DNA of 64,000 bases from a virus: IMG/VR virus record IMGVR_UViG_3300046171_000138. The stretch is one strand, 5' to 3'. The position numbers and the translations under genes are program-made. This document shows positions 48,299-54,730 of this stretch, piece by piece. Each line of letters opens with the position of its first letter. The stretch's first letter is position 1. The notes under the pieces were generated by a model that was given only the letters and a program-made list of their open reading frames with translations, ran no database searches and was not told the DNA's origin.

Positions 48299-49679
48299 AC
48301 ACTCTGTATTGAGAAATCTGCTTTGCAATGAGGAGTATTTTCGTAAGGTAGTTCCCTTTATTAAAGGTGAATACTTTCAGGAACCATCGGAGCGAGTTCT
48401 CTTTGAAGAGATTCAAGAATTCTCTAACAAGTATGATAAGTATCCGACTAAAGAAGTCCTAATCATTAATTTAACTCAACGTAATGATCTTACTGAAGAA
48501 ACTTATACGCAAACTGTATCGTATGTTAACTCGCTTGGTACAGAGTTTATTGAGACGAAGTGGCTTGTCGATGCGACGGAGAAATGGTGCCAGGAGAGGG
48601 CAGTCTACAACGCCCTCCTTGAATCTATCAAAATCGCAGAGGGATCAGGTGAACAGGAAGTATCAAAGGGGGCGATCCCAGGTATCCTACAAGAGGCTCT
48701 CGCAGTATCGTTTGATGAACACATCGGACACGACTACATACAGAATGTAGACGAAAGATACGACTATTATCACCTTGAAGAGCACAAGATTCCCTTTGAT
48801 ATTGATAAGTTGAATCTGGTAACCAAGGGTGGTATTCCTAACAAGACACTCAACGTTGCTCTTGCTGGTACAGGTGTTGGTAAGTCACTATTCATGTGTC
48901 ATATGGCAGCAGCATGTCTTTCTATTGGATATAATGTCCTCTACATCACACTAGAGATGGCAGAAGAAAAGATTGCTGAACGTATTGATGCTAATCTTTT
49001 GAATGTCAACATCCAAGAGATTGGTGAGATGCCCGAAGCAATCTTTAAAAGCAGAGTCAATGAGATTGGTAGGAAGTCTCAAGGTAAATTGATTATCAAA
49101 GAGTATCCTACTGCTGCTGCACACTCTGGACATTTCAAGTCATTGTTGAGTGATCTCTCACTTAAGAAAGACTTCAGACCTAATATAATCTTCGTTGATT
49201 ATCTGAACATCTGTGCTTCATCGCGATACAAAGGACATATTGTTAACTCTTACACCTATGTTAAAGCGATTGCAGAAGAGTTACGTGGTCTTGCAGTCGA
49301 GCATGATCTCCCTGTTGTCACTGCTACTCAAACTACTAGGAGTGGTTTTGGCAATAGTGATGTTGACCTCACAGATACTAGTGAATCTTTTGGTCTTCCC
49401 GCTACTGCCGATCTTATGCTTGCTCTTATATCTACTGAAGAACTAGAGCAGTCAGGTCGTATCATGATCAAGCAGCTCAAGAACAGATACAACGATGCTG
49501 CCTATTACAGACGCTTCACTGTAGGCATTGACAGATCAAAAATGAAGCTGTATAATGTCGATGACTCCGAAGGTGATATCTTATCTTCTGACTCTCCTGA
49601 AGAGGAGACCATGGACCGCCTAGATGATATCTCTGACAGGCAATCTAGACTAGACAAATTTTCCCAATTCGTAATTTAA
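48282..49679 (+). CDS. gp41: Replicative helicase gp41
   Basis: [27 protein letters not shown] and LKNRY. Confidence 0.96.
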
Positions 49680-50360: not shown

Positions 50361-50390
50361 ACCTCCTCTAAATACTAGGGGAGGTTTTTT
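50361..50390 (+). promoter_or_regulatory. Hairpin containing late promoter CTAAATA and sequestering the SD of 50394; also terminator-like
   Basis: ACCTCCTCTA-AATAC-TAGGGGAGGT followed by a T-run. GGAGG lies 9 nt before the ATG. Confidence 0.75.
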
Positions 50391-50393
50391 CGT

Positions 50394-51617
50394 ATGAAGT
50401 TAGCAGATCTCTGCCGCAATGGCAAAGAGTATGACATGCGTATCACCAAGATGATCAGGAAGATCGCTTCGGGTGGTAGATTTTTGCTTGCCGATAGCAT
50501 GGGTGACATTAACATCTATGAAATTACAGTCACTTTCAAGGACGGCACCCAGTCTGGATACGACGTTGACCACCTACAAGATGCTGCAATACAGAGGTAT
50601 CTGCGCCAGGACATTTTGTCGCTAGCAAACAATGGTGGTTTTCGTGGCAAGGGAAACATTGAGGTGTTTGGTGGCATCAGCGACACACATCTCACCGCTA
50701 CCTTTGACTTCCAAGATCTAGTAAAGACAGCAGAATTTGGTGGTCAAGGTAAGAAGGGTGGTAAAACAAATAAAGGTAATGACTACGAGAAAGATCTCTT
50801 CGAGAGTTGCGAGCACTATTTTGAGGGGGGTGGTCCTTACCCAGAGCATGCGAAACAGATCATTGACAAGATAAGTAAGGCAACGAAGCTCACATTTAAG
50901 GGTGCTAAACATGCTGGTGGTGACAACAGTTCTAGACCATTGAGGATGAGAGGTGCTAACGACATCTACATCTCTGCTGGTGGTTCTACTACCCTAGATA
51001 TGGGTAAAACACTGACAGATATTACACTTCTTTTTGGACCAGCGGGAGGTAAACCAACAAAGGAAATCTACCTGTCAGTTAAGATGGGAGACACACTGTC
51101 TTTCTTTAACTGTGGTGTCCGAGGTGGTGGTAAAGATAACCTATCACTGTTCCCCACTACTTCTTTCAAGACAGGAGATATTCCACCTGCTGGTCTAGTA
51201 TACCTGAACATGTTTGGTATTGATTCTGAAGATTTTCAGACAGTATTCAAAGAATATGTTGGTAAGGATGCTGGTAAAACGACAGTAAATAACCACCGAA
51301 GGAAAGTAACTTTAAAACCTTCTGGTGTCAGAGGATTGAAGAGACTCATTGCATCTGGTGTAGGTTATGGATATTGGATGGTCCATTACACGGGCACCGA
51401 TGTACATTGCTATGAAGTTGACAGAAGATACATGGCAAATTCTTCTGCTCTGATTGGTAATGAGATTGAGATTCACTATGGTGGTGTCAACGGCAAAGGA
51501 AAGCGAGTTGACATCCTATTTGAAACAAAGAACTATGAGTTCAAATTTAATATCAGATCAAAGAGTGGAGGAGAGACATTCCCAACACACACCAACGGGG
51601 ATTACTATAAGAAGTAA
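50394..51617 (+). CDS. Putative PD-(D/E)XK restriction-endonuclease-like protein
   Basis: NKGNDYE helix, TDITL...IYLSVK (D...SxK) arrangement. Inference from motif spacing only. Confidence 0.5.
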   Translation: MKLADLCRNGKEYDMRITKMIRKIASGGRFLLADSMGDINIYEITVTFKDGTQSGYDVDHLQDAAIQRYLRQDILSLANNGGFRGKGNIEVFGGISDTHLTATFDFQDLVKTAEFGGQGKKGGKTNKGNDYEKDLFESCEHYFEGGGPYPEHAKQIIDKISKATKLTFKGAKHAGGDNSSRPLRMRGANDIYISAGGSTTLDMGKTLTDITLLFGPAGGKPTKEIYLSVKMGDTLSFFNCGVRGGGKDNLSLFPTTSFKTGDIPPAGLVYLNMFGIDSEDFQTVFKEYVGKDAGKTTVNNHRRKVTLKPSGVRGLKRLIASGVGYGYWMVHYTGTDVHCYEVDRRYMANSSALIGNEIEIHYGGVNGKGKRVDILFETKNYEFKFNIRSKSGGETFPTHTNGDYYKK

Positions 51618-52813
51618 TGGCAAACATTAAGCAATTAAAACATCTAGAACACATAGAAGATGAAATGCTAAACTATGGTACAGAAGGATGTACTGCAGCA
51701 GTTGCTTTCCTGAAGGAACTTCGTAAGATGCTGGGTCACCAGGAGTCTCAAGGTTTCATGCAAACCAAGTGGGATGGTGCTCCATCAGTCATCTGTGGTG
51801 TGCATCCATACACGAAAAGATTCTTTGTTGGCACTAAATCTGTGTTCAACAAAACAGAACCAAAACTATGCTTCTTACCTGGTGATGTAGACGCATACTA
51901 TTCAGGTGATTTGGCAGAGAAACTTAAGTTCTCTCTAGAATATTTTAGTAAACTAGGTATCGATGGAGTCGTGCAAGGCGACCTCATGTTTACTAACAGC
52001 ACATTGAAAACAGAGACGGTTAATGGTGAGAGACTGTACACATTCAGACCTAACACTATTACCTATGGCATTCCAGTAGATCATCCTATCGGCAAATCAG
52101 CAGGTAGAGCAAAGATTGGTGTAGTATTCCACACTCATTACACTGGTGATGACCTTGCAGACATGCAAGCTCGTGCAGGTGCTGATGTTACTGGTTCACA
52201 AGATGCATTGGTGATCAAAAATGACACACCAATGGATCAAGTTGGTTTTAGTAAGCAAGAATTACAACGCTTTGACAACCATGTACAAAAGATCGAACGT
52301 ATGTGTGCCATTACTGGTCCTTTTCTTGACGATCTGGTTTCCAATATGGGCAGCACTGGTGATAAGAAATTTCATATCTCAACCTTCGTCAAACAGTTCT
52401 TCAACAGCGAGGTTAAAGCTGGAGTACAGATTACAAACGTGGACGAAACGATCCATGCCCTGGTAAATTTCTACGATGCCAAGATGCAGAAGGAGTTAGC
52501 AAAGATCAAGACAGTTGCTAACAGAACAAAGAAGTGTGCGCTGGTATATGAGAGTGAGAACTATCTCCTAGATAATGTCTACAAGTTTAAGATGATGATT
52601 GCTCTGTACAAAGAGTTGCAAAATCTTAAGCAAATGGTTATAGATAAACTGGACCACCTTGAGGAGTTCAGAACCTATGTCCAGACAGAGAATGGATATA
52701 AGGTGACGACACCTGAAGGATATGTTATGCACAAAGATGGCAGCATGATTAAGTTTGTCAATCGCTTTGAGTTTGCGTTCAACAACTTTACTCTACAAAA
52801 GCAATGGCGTTAA
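51617..52813 (+). CDS. ATP-dependent ligase-like nucleotidyltransferase (KxDG family), conserved in marine T4-like phages
   Basis: TKWDG (motif I), VVQGDLMF (III), PEGYV (IV) and IKFV (V). Confidence 0.65.
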   Translation: MANIKQLKHLEHIEDEMLNYGTEGCTAAVAFLKELRKMLGHQESQGFMQTKWDGAPSVICGVHPYTKRFFVGTKSVFNKTEPKLCFLPGDVDAYYSGDLAEKLKFSLEYFSKLGIDGVVQGDLMFTNSTLKTETVNGERLYTFRPNTITYGIPVDHPIGKSAGRAKIGVVFHTHYTGDDLADMQARAGADVTGSQDALVIKNDTPMDQVGFSKQELQRFDNHVQKIERMCAITGPFLDDLVSNMGSTGDKKFHISTFVKQFFNSEVKAGVQITNVDETIHALVNFYDAKMQKELAKIKTVANRTKKCALVYESENYLLDNVYKFKMMIALYKELQNLKQMVIDKLDHLEEFRTYVQTENGYKVTTPEGYVMHKDGSMIKFVNRFEFAFNNFTLQKQWR

Positions 52814-53367
52814 ATTGTAAGACCTGCTACTTTACGTTTGGCAGATTCCAACCACCTACTACTGGTCACAAAGAAAACTTTGACGGAGTGAAACGTGCAT
52901 CAGGACGACACGATTATCGCATTTATATTTCTCAATCCCACGACACTAAAGGAAAGAATCCCCTCGCACCTCATCGTAAACTATTCTACATGGAGAAGAT
53001 GTTCCCAGAGCATAAGGGTAAAATCTTTTCGGGTCCTAAACAACCCGTGGAGATCTTACAGGAGCTTATGATGGATGGGTATAATGAAGCAGTGTTTCTT
53101 GTAGGATCTGATAGGGTATCAGCCATGTCATTCCTCCATAAATATAACGGCACGGAGTTTTCTTTTAGAAAACTAGAAATTCAATCTTCAGGCAGCAGAG
53201 ATGCTGATGGAGATACCTTTGCTATTTCTGGAACAAAGATGAGACGTGCTGCTTTTGCTGCCGACTTCAAAACATTTAGGTCTGGTATACCCAGAGCACT
53301 GAATGATAAAGATTGTATGGCAATGATGATGGAAATTAAAGGAGCACTCCCCGCTAATTTTAAATGA
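52804..53367 (+). CDS. HIGH-superfamily nucleotidyltransferase (NMNAT/PPAT/cytidylyltransferase-like)
   Basis: FGRFQPPTTGH, VGSDR and ISGTKMR. Confidence 0.85.
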   Translation: MALNCKTCYFTFGRFQPPTTGHKENFDGVKRASGRHDYRIYISQSHDTKGKNPLAPHRKLFYMEKMFPEHKGKIFSGPKQPVEILQELMMDGYNEAVFLVGSDRVSAMSFLHKYNGTEFSFRKLEIQSSGSRDADGDTFAISGTKMRRAAFAADFKTFRSGIPRALNDKDCMAMMMEIKGALPANFK

Positions 53368-53639
53368 AAGACTTCAAAAAATTGAGAGAGCAAGCAGTTC
53401 GTCAGCAGCATAGACAAACTGATACATTTGCTGAAGGTGATATTATTATGAATGCATTGACTGGACAGAAAGGTAGTATACATAGGTCTGGAGTCAACTA
53501 TGTTATTGCAATTACCGAGTCTGGTGAGATGTTTAGAGCGTGGGTAAAAGACATCCGCGCCGTACAAGTAATTGATACCATAAATAAAGACAGGAAAAGT
53601 AGTATTTTCAATAATGGAAAGACAGAAACCAGTCAATAG
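53364..53639 (+). CDS. Conserved hypothetical protein (SH3/KOW-like possible)
   Basis: MKDFKKLRE, GVNYVI and FRAWVKDI, with ATGA coupling. Confidence 0.65.
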   Translation: MKDFKKLREQAVRQQHRQTDTFAEGDIIMNALTGQKGSIHRSGVNYVIAITESGEMFRAWVKDIRAVQVIDTINKDRKSSIFNNGKTETSQ

Positions 53640-54342
53640 TGTGCAGCATAATGATGCCTATTCCCAGGCACTTATTAATTCGTATTCAAAGTGGATGGGT
53701 GGAGATGGATTCCAACAGTCTACTATCAGTGAAGAGTCTGCTACCATCCCAGCACCAGAGAAGAAAGAACTAGGAGCTCCTGGTCCTGCTGGTGGTACTG
53801 ATGCATCCACTTCTATCCCTGACCTTTCTGGTAAGGAAAAGAAAGAGGATGACTTCTCGACTAAAGATCCTAAAACAAACGCTGCTCCCCCTGATCCTGC
53901 TGCTAACCTGCGTACAGGTCAAGGTATGAAGTATTCTGTTGGAGCACAGATCAAAGATACTACTAAAGTTGCTACAGAGACACTTTCTTTTGAACTTGAT
54001 GGTGCAACATACATCTTTGAAGTCAAGATGGATGGCAAAGATGACAATGGTAACACCTCTTGCTGGAAAGGATATAAGAAGCAAGGCACCAAGAAGAAAG
54101 GTGGTAAGGAAGTCAACAACTGTGTCAAGGCAGGATTTGAGCCTACTGGCGAAGAGATCAAAGAGAAGAAACTTGATCCCGTAGGCAAGGAAGATAAGGA
54201 CATCGACAACGATGGTGACCACGATAAGTCTGATAAGTATCTGCTTGCTCGCCGCAAGAAGGTCTCCAAGATTGTCAACACCAGCAAGAAGATGAAAGAG
54301 CAGGCAGAACTTCGCAAGGAGATCGAAGAAGAAAAAAAGTGA
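53614..54342 (+). CDS. Charged low-complexity protein, likely head-internal
   Basis: CWKGYKKQG..NCVK and LDPVGKEDKDIDNDGD modules. ATAAATA at 53580. Confidence 0.6.
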   Translation: MERQKPVNSVQHNDAYSQALINSYSKWMGGDGFQQSTISEESATIPAPEKKELGAPGPAGGTDASTSIPDLSGKEKKEDDFSTKDPKTNAAPPDPAANLRTGQGMKYSVGAQIKDTTKVATETLSFELDGATYIFEVKMDGKDDNGNTSCWKGYKKQGTKKKGGKEVNNCVKAGFEPTGEEIKEKKLDPVGKEDKDIDNDGDHDKSDKYLLARRKKVSKIVNTSKKMKEQAELRKEIEEEKK

Positions 54343-54700: not shown

Positions 54701-54730
54701 AGGGAGGGGATAGTGCCTCTCCCTTTTTTT
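54701..54730 (+). terminator. Intrinsic terminator followed directly by TATAAATA (54731-54738)
   Basis: AGGGAGGGG-atagtg-CCTCTCCCT followed by a T-run. Confidence 0.8.

Follow-up and report, generated by a model that had tools for sequence, protein, structure and literature searches.

What does a marine phage do with a nuclease-like protein, a ligase-like protein and a nucleotidyltransferase-like protein encoded in one tightly overlapping row of genes? The question is raised by positions 50,394 to 53,639 of the IMG/VR virus record IMGVR_UViG_3300046171_000138, of which a stretch of 64,000 nucleotides (the window) was analyzed. This 3.2-kb block encodes, all on the plus strand, a nuclease-like protein of 407 amino acids (aa; 50394–51617), a 398-aa protein of the Pfam family DUF6267 (51617–52813), a 187-aa transferase of the HIGH class (52804–53367) and a small 91-aa protein, p91 (53364–53639). 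An earlier note, made from the sequence alone, had reported these four open reading frames (ORFs) and the way in which they are joined, and both descriptions hold: the junctions are TAATG at 51615–51619, a 10-nucleotide overlap at 52804–52813 and an ATGA overlap at 53364–53367. The window is an S-CAM1-like Synechococcus myovirus, the block being 96% identical in DNA to that of Synechococcus phage S-CAM1 (Kyanoviridae), where its genes are labeled as three hypothetical proteins and a "cytitidyltransferase." In S-CAM1, the block belongs to the replication module, where it is preceded by gp43 polymerase, uvsX, gp41, mazG and a 65-aa ORF and followed by several small genes, gp61 and nrdA. On balance, we favor the view that the block is a conserved, probably late-expressed module that cuts and seals nucleic acid, and the sealing of nucleic-acid breaks is its most likely function.

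The 398-aa protein is a full-length match to DUF6267 (PF19782; E 1e-130, 436.9 bits against a cut-off of 27). In an alignment with 107 relatives of 30–59% identity, H12, K51, D53, G54, G61, F70, K74, D122, Y150, H172, E367, G368, K379 and F386 are invariant. The ligase motifs that had been proposed for this protein (K51-WDG, VQGD, EGYV and K379) are thus present and invariant across the 107 relatives, and the motif residues are retained even in the short forms of the family, including those of phages XaC1, Melnitz and P-SSM7 (309 aa, 25% identity), in which the region between motifs IIIa and IV is shortened. We obtained an AlphaFold model of high confidence (predicted local distance difference test score (pLDDT) of 94.5; predicted template modeling score (pTM) of 0.91), and the motifs fall on it in the expected order: motif I (T-K51-W-D53-G54) at the end of strand 47–51, motif III (QGD122) on strand 118–126, motif IIIa (F143..Y150) on strands 138–153, motif IV (E367-G368) on strand 368–373 and motif V (K379) on strand 376–381. 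Motif I lies between two strands of the model, and motifs IV and V lie on adjacent strands. The β core comprises residues 47–199 and 352–381, and five long helices (213–348) are inserted between motifs IIIa and IV. Because the chain stops 19 residues past motif V, with one short helix only, the modeled protein has no OB, BRCT or other C-terminal domain. Both the long helical insert and the absence of OB and BRCT domains, as the earlier note had read them from the letters, are therefore borne out by the model.

Structural comparison of the model by VIA-align pointed to the same enzyme class. Eight of the 12 best rows are RNA ligases, with Z scores of 8.1–6.4 over 159–197 aligned residues: the Naegleria RNA ligase NgrRnl/Rnl5 (5cot; Z 8.1, 182 residues, root mean square deviation 4.0), the Trl1 ligase domains (6n0t and 9r3w; Z 7.3 and 7.1), T4 Rnl1 (9do4; Z 6.9), T4 Rnl2 (1s68 and 2hvq; Z 6.9 and 6.7), REL1 (1xdn; Z 6.6) and a further RNA ligase (9qw7; Z 6.4). 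DNA ligases (archaeal, human, Prochlorococcus and Chlorella-virus) rank after them, with Z scores of 6.1–5.5. In all, about twenty ligases occur in the top 50 matches, each aligned on the split β core (model range ∼5–393). Because of this enrichment of ligases together with the invariant motif residues, a ligase-type nucleotidyltransferase fold is the only coherent reading of the protein. The description "ligase-like, as in RNA ligases" stands on the motifs, on the matches to RNA-ligase adenylyltransferase domains and on the missing OB domain. Our conclusion is that DUF6267, with its RNA-ligase-like architecture, adds a new family to the lysine-nucleotidyltransferase (polynucleotide ligase) superfamily. 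A feature search of the ESM Atlas gave a weak lead to PF09414 (score 0.76), and a shape search of the same resource returned only DUF6267's own family.

The resemblance to RNA ligases (NgrRnl/Rnl5, Trl1, T4 Rnl1, T4 Rnl2 and REL1) extends beyond the fold of the adenylyltransferase domain to the order of motifs I, III, IIIa, IV and V, with their invariant Lys, Asp, Glu-Gly and Lys, and to the lack of a C-terminal OB domain. T4 Rnl1 further resembles DUF6267 in the spacing of motifs IV and V (12 residues) and in local sequence, and a link to a P-loop kinase, seen in DUF6267 relatives, is also found in Trl1 and in the T4 pair Pnk and Rnl1. However, DUF6267 shows no significant sequence or profile similarity to RNA ligases and is not a member of the Rnl families. 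Whereas RNA ligases carry a C- or N-terminal appendage, DUF6267 carries a 135-residue five-helix insert inside the catalytic domain; it also has Asp instead of Glu in motif III, a single Lys in motif V and an obligatory HIGH-transferase partner. Compared with ATP-dependent DNA ligases (T4 gp30, Chlorella virus ligase and archaeal and eukaryotic Lig1/3/4), DUF6267 has the same superfamily fold at lower Z scores (6.1–5.5) but lacks the OB domain, motif VI, the DNA-binding domain, any PF01068 match and the Arg of KxDGxR.

The second line of evidence is the linkage of the ligase-like protein to the transferase. The DUF6267 alignment led to 80 viral contigs, in which 66 loci extend far enough to show the neighborhood; 62 of them have a transferase homologue downstream and on the same strand, and p91 follows the transferase in at least 34 loci. 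A second set, from genome collections, held 63 independent loci, nearly all of them aquatic metagenome bins resembling mis-binned phage contigs; here, the transferase is downstream in 37 of 45 loci (counted from hidden Markov model hits). Further, the two proteins are fused in some phages and contigs, with DUF6267 first in P0129, P0172, P0230, P0236, P0252, L044, L069 and apparently S-PM2, and with the transferase first in P0150, P0179 and P0234. A cluster of 760-aa proteins in the ESM Atlas likewise carries both domains. Because independent fusions occur in both orders, there is strong evidence that DUF6267 and the transferase act in one pathway. The functional link that the earlier note had suspected between the two, for which it had asked about the conservation of the neighborhood, is in this way upheld by the counts in both sets and by the fusions. 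In S-PM2, the DUF6267 match is split (L167 4992–6771): S-PM2p141 (192 aa) holds the N-terminal part, and S-PM2p142 (a 390-aa "cytidyltransferase") holds the C-terminal half and the transferase. The pair resembles a single 591-aa fusion, as in L044 and L069, that a frameshift or a sequencing error has interrupted.

Other nucleotide-handling domains accompany the pair in relatives of the block. A P-loop kinase of the AAA_33 type forms one chain with DUF6267 in P0238 and with the transferase in L065, and it also occurs as a stand-alone gene just upstream of the transferase gene; in all, AAA_33 was found in 12 of 130 neighboring ORFs. Similarly, a Pol-β nucleotidyltransferase is fused to the N terminus of the transferase in L037, L041, L052, L076 and L081. 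The combination of a ligase, a kinase and a template-independent nucleotidyltransferase is the domain set of end-healing and -sealing systems, which has been reviewed for jumbo phages (PMC7824862). An adenylate kinase follows DUF6267 in four loci; it would recycle the AMP released by a ligase. A four-member cluster of 169–201 aa lies downstream of DUF6267 at L052 6651–7253 (adjacent), L054 7525–8031, L061 5362–5931 and L080 4464–5045, all of them non-cyanophage marine myovirus contigs, and we take it to be the four PF00406 adenylate kinase matches (best E 2e-43).

The first protein of the block supplies the cutting half of the proposed module. The 407-aa protein (phrog_8438) was modeled with a pLDDT of 89.6; residues 1–120 form a separate small β-barrel, and residues ∼124–407 form a PD-(D/E)xK endonuclease domain of the HinP1I/MspI type. 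Foldseek matched the model to HinP1I (2fkc; E 7e-4, probability 0.99), and VIA-align placed HinP1I first (Z 8.4 over 177 residues) and MspI close behind (Z 7.9 over 216), the next row having a Z of 5.7; further PD-(D/E)xK matches were I-Ssp6803I, HhaI, SwaI, Hjc, Dna2 and EcoRV. A feature search of the ESM Atlas gave a lead to R-HINP1I, in agreement with the fold. Searches of Pfam, NCBIfam and PDB sequences with the 407-aa protein returned no match; the label "nuclease-like" is supported by the fold. E132, D209, S228 and K230 are invariant in an alignment of 35 nuclease relatives, an assignment made from the alignment and not by superposition on the HinP1I active site. The Asp-to-Lys spacing in this invariant E...D...SxK is 21, the same as between D62 and K83 of HinP1I. 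The protein differs from HinP1I and MspI in its sequence (∼10% identity), in the extra N-terminal barrel of ∼120 residues and in its setting, a lytic phage in which it always stands beside the ligase-like gene with no methyltransferase in the block. None was found among the adjacent genes scanned (mazG, the 65-aa ORF, DUF6267, the transferase, p91 and the 242-aa gene p242). Of the nuclease homologues, 75 had enough sequence around them to judge, and in all 75 the DUF6267 gene comes directly next, with those for the transferase, p91 and the 242-aa protein after it. The nuclease occurs far less widely than DUF6267 and appears to be an accessory part.

The transferase carries the two signatures that had been claimed for it, a (T/H)xGH motif in GRFQPPTTGH and an ISxTxxR-type motif in ISGTKMR. 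In 46 relatives, the conserved motifs are GRF.P(P)T.GH, GSDR, SxGxR and (M/I)S(A/G)(S/T)KMR, with G13, R14, P17, G21, H22, S142 and R147 invariant. The protein is a clear member of phage families labeled "cytidyltransferase" (phrog_3041, 6e-68), and PF01467 (CTP_transf_like) was reached with 21.6 bits against a cut-off of 21, relatives scoring up to 35 bits. When the family profile was searched against PDB, the best matches were the archaeal nicotinamide mononucleotide adenylyltransferase (NMNAT) MJ0541 (E 0.0036) and NadR (E 0.0046), followed by NadD, a NadR-family enzyme and NadM. It shares with NMNATs (archaeal, NadR and NadM) the HIGH Rossmann class, GRFxP..GH and the ISxTxxR-type motif, and a fusion to a P-loop kinase, known from NadR, recurs in some transferase relatives, where the kinase is N-terminal and of the AAA_33 type. 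In place of HxGH, however, it has TxGH; it has no Nudix domain, and its partners are a ligase-like enzyme and an SH3-like domain. Phage NAD+ salvage pairs NadM with NadV (PMC9503650). A NadV/Nampt partner (PF04095) was searched for in five block-carrying phages, S-CAM1, S-PM2, Melnitz, S-SZBM1 and P-SSM7, and gave no match in any of them, and because of this absence the block is not the known phage NAD-salvage route through NadV and NadM or NadR.

The small fourth protein, p91, has a conserved core of ∼45 residues in the alignment and is the C-terminal domain of the transferase polypeptide in many phages. Its profile weakly matched the SH3-like domain of uL2 and the KOW domain of Spt5 (E 0.14–0.3), and p91 is probably an SH3/KOW-like β-barrel. 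In the databases, it matches phrog_4808 and positions 208–278 of phrog_395. Homologues of p91 are labeled "ribonucleotide reductase alpha subunit" or "NrdB" in RefSeq and phrog_4808 (e.g. S-PM2p144, L167 8525–8800); p91 has no resemblance to ribonucleotide reductase, and the name has apparently been carried from record to record by mistake.

A late expression of the block is suggested by its upstream region. At 50361–50385, on the plus strand, a hairpin with a 10-bp stem is followed by a T-run; a CTAAATA box resembling a late promoter (50368–50374) spans the 5′ arm and the loop, and the 3′ arm contains GGAGG (50380–50384), the Shine-Dalgarno sequence of the nuclease gene. Box, hairpin, GGAGG and T-run recur together in front of nuclease homologues in most of the 30 distinct loci compared, whose encoded proteins are 45–98% identical. 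The stem sequences vary among the loci yet keep pairing, and CTAAATA is found at −26 to −30. The element (50361–50396; loci L082–L156) is a good candidate for a regulatory element supported by covariation. The hairpin resembles a terminator for upstream transcripts, and in read-through RNA it would hide the Shine-Dalgarno sequence. The layout fits a device that stops or silences read-through RNA while allowing late transcripts begun inside the hairpin to be translated. Late promoters had been proposed at 50368 and 53580; both boxes are there (ATAAATA at 53580), and the design at 50368 is conserved, but CTAAATA as such is not enriched in the window (12 matches compared with 9.4 ± 3 expected). 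A perfect σ70 consensus (TTGACA, a spacer of 17 nucleotides and TATAAT; 12 of 12 positions) occurs at 49528–49556, in the 3′ end of gp41 just upstream of mazG; if it acts as an early promoter, as it may, its transcripts would reach the hairpin at 50361–50385.

Additional information on timing comes from the related phage S-SZBM1. Its CsCl-purified virions contain the transferase SSZBM1_140 and SSZBM1_139, the product of the next gene, whereas the DUF6267 homologue SSZBM1_141 is absent from the virion protein list (PMC9146016). A late, possibly virion-associated role thus has some support, and because the transferase and the next gene product are found in virions, the transferase may be injected with the DNA. 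Genes 139 and 140 of S-SZBM1 correspond to L248 2989–5478, and the transferase in the particle is a transferase-p91 protein.

How, then, might the parts work together? Because ligase-less phages keep a conserved nuclease, a ligase-fold protein and a transferase linked to it by fusions, the block is probably an undescribed repair or maturation module of the cut-and-seal kind. In such a module, K51 of DUF6267 would accept AMP from a nucleotide donor, the AMP would be handed on to a 5′-phosphate end, and the break would then be sealed, with the helical insert possibly holding the substrate. The NMNAT-like transferase and its SH3-like partner domain would serve the same pathway as the ligase; the transferase would most likely make or recycle the donor on site (NMN + ATP → NAD+ + PPi, where NMN is nicotinamide mononucleotide) or act on the adenylated 5′ end. 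The HinP1I/MspI-like nuclease would supply or process the breaks, and the P-loop kinase and the Pol-β nucleotidyltransferase of relatives would add end-healing steps. The earlier note had proposed RNA repair, capping, or a nucleotide signal or decoy against host immunity; the position in the replication module, the absence of a canonical ligase and the late control point to the joining of DNA or RNA ends at least as much as to counter-defense. Of this picture, the folds, motifs, gene order and fusions are observed, whereas the chemistry, the choice of RNA or DNA and the expression timing are inferred.

Several observations weigh against this reading. As to the fold of DUF6267, Foldseek against PDB returned noise only (carbonic anhydrase, TM 0.1) and no ligase, and the VIA-align Z scores, at most 8.1, are "middling" on the tool's own scale. 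Sequence methods tie DUF6267 to no ligase family: phmmer and the family profile gave only low-complexity matches in the helical insert when run against PDB sequences, and hhalign found no significant similarity between the family and T4 gp30, Rnl1 and Rnl2, whether these entered as single sequences or as alignments of 42 and 35 relatives (probability 1.5% for gp30, 2.2% for the Rnl1 alignment and 0.1% for the Rnl2 alignment). The sole signal from hhalign, a weak one that speaks for the ligase assignment, aligned PEGFVA..G..VKL with motifs IV–V of T4 Rnl1. The motifs were assigned by order and secondary structure and not by residue-level superposition, the Arg found in KxDGxR is missing from motif I, and motif V contains only one Lys. 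With regard to the partners, eight of the genome-collection DUF6267 loci have no transferase within 1.5–6 kb downstream. The likeness of the transferase to NMNATs is weak, the PDB matches covering only the N-terminal 60–70 positions (profile 1–72), and the NadR model TIGR01526 scored 17 bits against a cut-off of 341. Because of these weak, N-terminal matches and the distance to the NadR cut-off, the label "NMNAT-like," as used in the earlier note, is the best available one and not a statement of membership, although the best matches among solved structures are indeed archaeal NMNAT, NadR, NadD and NadM. Similarly, typing of the kinase gave zeta toxin and dephospho-CoA kinase matches that cover the P-loop only and no assignment as a polynucleotide kinase. 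Finally, in jumbo phage XaC1, DUF6267 (with the transferase 3.5 kb downstream of it) occurs alongside a canonical ATP-dependent DNA ligase. Because XaC1 has both, the idea that DUF6267 is a simple substitute for gp30 in every phage is weakened.

We next weighed which nucleic acid the module would seal. In a more specific form of the cut-and-seal explanation, which we regard as possible but hold only tentatively, the substrate is DNA. DUF6267 would then be the "missing" DNA ligase of cyanomyoviruses, an analogue of gp30, which together with the nuclease matures DNA late in infection (nick sealing and the trimming of branches before packaging) or joins Okazaki fragments. T4-like cyanophages have no homologues of gp30 and rnh; distant, unrecognized homologues are one possibility, and host enzymes are usually assumed to substitute for the missing ligase and RNase H (PMC2984593). 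In agreement with this documented gap, we found no match to the ATP-dependent (PF01068) or NAD-dependent (PF01653) DNA ligase families in S-CAM1, S-PM2 and Melnitz. PF01068 gave nothing at E ≤ 1 in S-CAM1, whereas an identical search found T4 gp30 at 9e-35, and as a control the ligase profile searches recovered gp30, Rnl1 and Rnl2 in T4. PF01653 was also without a match in XaC1, and PF09414 (RNA_ligase) was without one in S-CAM1, where PF09511 was not run. The DUF6267 gene of S-PM2 is a core gene, "T4-like gene cluster 71" (T4-like GC 71), and the family was found by tblastn in 468 phage records, nearly all of them Synechococcus or Prochlorococcus myoviruses. Its location between gp43/uvsX/gp41/mazG and gp61/nrdA, in the replication module, fits the role of gp30 in a phage without it, as does a nuclease of a DNA-cutting fold whose weaker matches include Hjc resolvases and Dna2; further, denV lies two genes upstream of DUF6267 in P-SSM7. 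Against a DNA substrate stand the absence of the OB domain and motif VI of DNA ligases, the ranking of RNA ligases ∼2 Z units above DNA ligases and the coexistence of a canonical DNA ligase and DUF6267 in XaC1, and there is no obvious need in DNA joining for a HIGH transferase, a kinase or a Pol-β nucleotidyltransferase.

The other specific form of the cut-and-seal explanation, in which the module repairs phage or host RNA, for example tRNA cut by host anticodon nucleases, as an analogue of T4 Pnk and Rnl1, we consider slightly less likely. The structural ranking speaks for it, with Rnl5, Trl1, Rnl1, Rnl2 and REL1 as top matches, as does the architecture without an OB domain. The helical insert taken alone resembles a YqeY/GatB-type helical domain (Z 6.8 over 82 residues), which for helices is a lead only, and p91 is weakly like the RNA-binding uL2 and KOW barrels; both matches are weak. 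The fused or neighboring P-loop kinase and Pol-β nucleotidyltransferase correspond to the RNA-repair domain set (PMC7824862). However, no phosphoesterase for 2′,3′-cyclic phosphate ends was seen in the block, no tRNA genes were found within the window, the nuclease partner has a DNA-restriction fold, and the genes belong to a core set in the replication module and not to a variable position resembling a defense island. Overall, core status, genome position, nuclease fold and the ligase gap favor DNA, and the structural ranking, the missing OB domain and the kinase and Pol-β neighbors favor RNA; on these grounds we cannot decide between the two.

A bolder proposal is that DUF6267 and the HIGH transferase form a two-enzyme ligation machine with new chemistry, and this we think unlikely. 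In one version, a ligase of RNA-ligase architecture would use NAD+ regenerated on the spot from NMN and ATP by the NMNAT-like partner; sealing would in that case not draw on the host NAD+ pool and would therefore withstand NAD+-depleting defenses. Although DUF6267, with its 398 residues, is without the domain Ia, OB, Zn finger, HhH and BRCT domains of NAD+-dependent LigA, the use of NAD+ as a donor would still be possible. In the other version, the transferase would act on 5′-phosphates, either adenylating the ends or reversing abortive adenylated (App) ends by pyrophosphorolysis, and so would replace or proofread step 2 of ligation.

Still less probable, in our estimate, is that DUF6267 is not a ligase at all and that its lysyl-nucleotide serves RNA capping or NAD-type capping, the nucleotidylation of protein or DNA, or, together with the transferase, the synthesis of a dinucleotide signal or decoy. 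Two fused nucleotide-transfer enzymes without an OB domain would suit such a role, the variants in motifs I and V depart from classic ligases, and an adenylate kinase is found near DUF6267 in four relatives; however, the top 50 structural matches contain no capping enzyme compared with ∼20 ligases, PADLOC gave no match among the block proteins, and no known signal-synthase or decoy family was detected. The idea that the genes are independent neighbors, the "cytidylyltransferase" being a stand-alone auxiliary metabolic gene for NAD salvage or a cell-envelope cytidylyltransferase, was already disfavored and is very improbable, for although it is classed in published genome descriptions among auxiliary metabolic genes whose function is unclear (PMC9146016, PMC7238727) and the Pfam cytidylyltransferase-like family is reached, at threshold only, the repeated fusions in both orders, the near-universal synteny across 30–99% identity, the lack of a NadV/Nampt partner in five phage genomes and the presence of the transferase in S-SZBM1 virions all speak against it.

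Returning to the cut-and-seal module, its component folds are known, whereas three things appear to be undescribed: the DUF6267 family, the helical insert within its catalytic domain and its obligate partnership with a HIGH transferase. The earlier note had known of no described version, and we likewise found no mention of DUF6267 or PF19782 in the literature covered, which excludes two relevant studies, Burroughs and Aravind 2016 (RNA repair systems) and Doron 2016 (Syn9 transcriptome). NCBIfam and PADLOC together returned nothing for three of the four block proteins. T4-like cyanophages are among the most abundant viruses of the ocean, and the assignment of a ligase fold to one of their core "hypothetical" genes (T4-like GC 71, DUF6267) turns the ligase gap into a testable proposal. 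If the proposal is true, the ligase superfamily gains a family whose helical insert is internal and whose obligatory partner is novel, two widespread annotations are corrected (the "cytitidyltransferase" counted among auxiliary metabolic genes and the 91-aa "ribonucleotide reductase alpha subunit"), and laboratories may gain a new ligase.

Downstream of the block, a Lys/Glu-rich ORF of 242 aa (p242; 53614–54342, plus strand; phrog_4359, with a weak DUF7201 match) is conserved alongside it and is a possible fifth member. The four ORFs of the block as first described are all present, but its limitation to four genes did not hold. A hairpin at 54701–54724 on the plus strand (9-bp stem with six GC pairs, followed by T8), which resembles a terminator by match to the consensus only, is likely the 3′ end of the transcription unit; because of this hairpin, the unit is suggested to extend past 53639 and to take in the 242-aa gene.

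The DUF6267 family as a whole comprises 2,223 clusters at 50% identity in an exhaustive search. Apart from cyanomyoviruses, its few carriers are phages of Methylophilales, Pelagibacter, Vibrio, Stenotrophomonas, Pseudoalteromonas and Xanthomonas. Loci from metagenome bins (L249–L311) are labeled Euryarchaeota, Woesearchaeota, Planctomycetota, Pelagibacter, Chloroflexota and others, and many have phage gene order; the loci in cellular bins are probably phage contigs mis-binned into metagenome-assembled genomes. The sole isolate genome among the genome-collection loci is that of Nonlabens xiamenensis. In P-SSM7 (L312 2013–4921), the 309-aa form of DUF6267 comes after denV (endonuclease V) and a hypothetical protein of 465 aa (T4-like GC 533).

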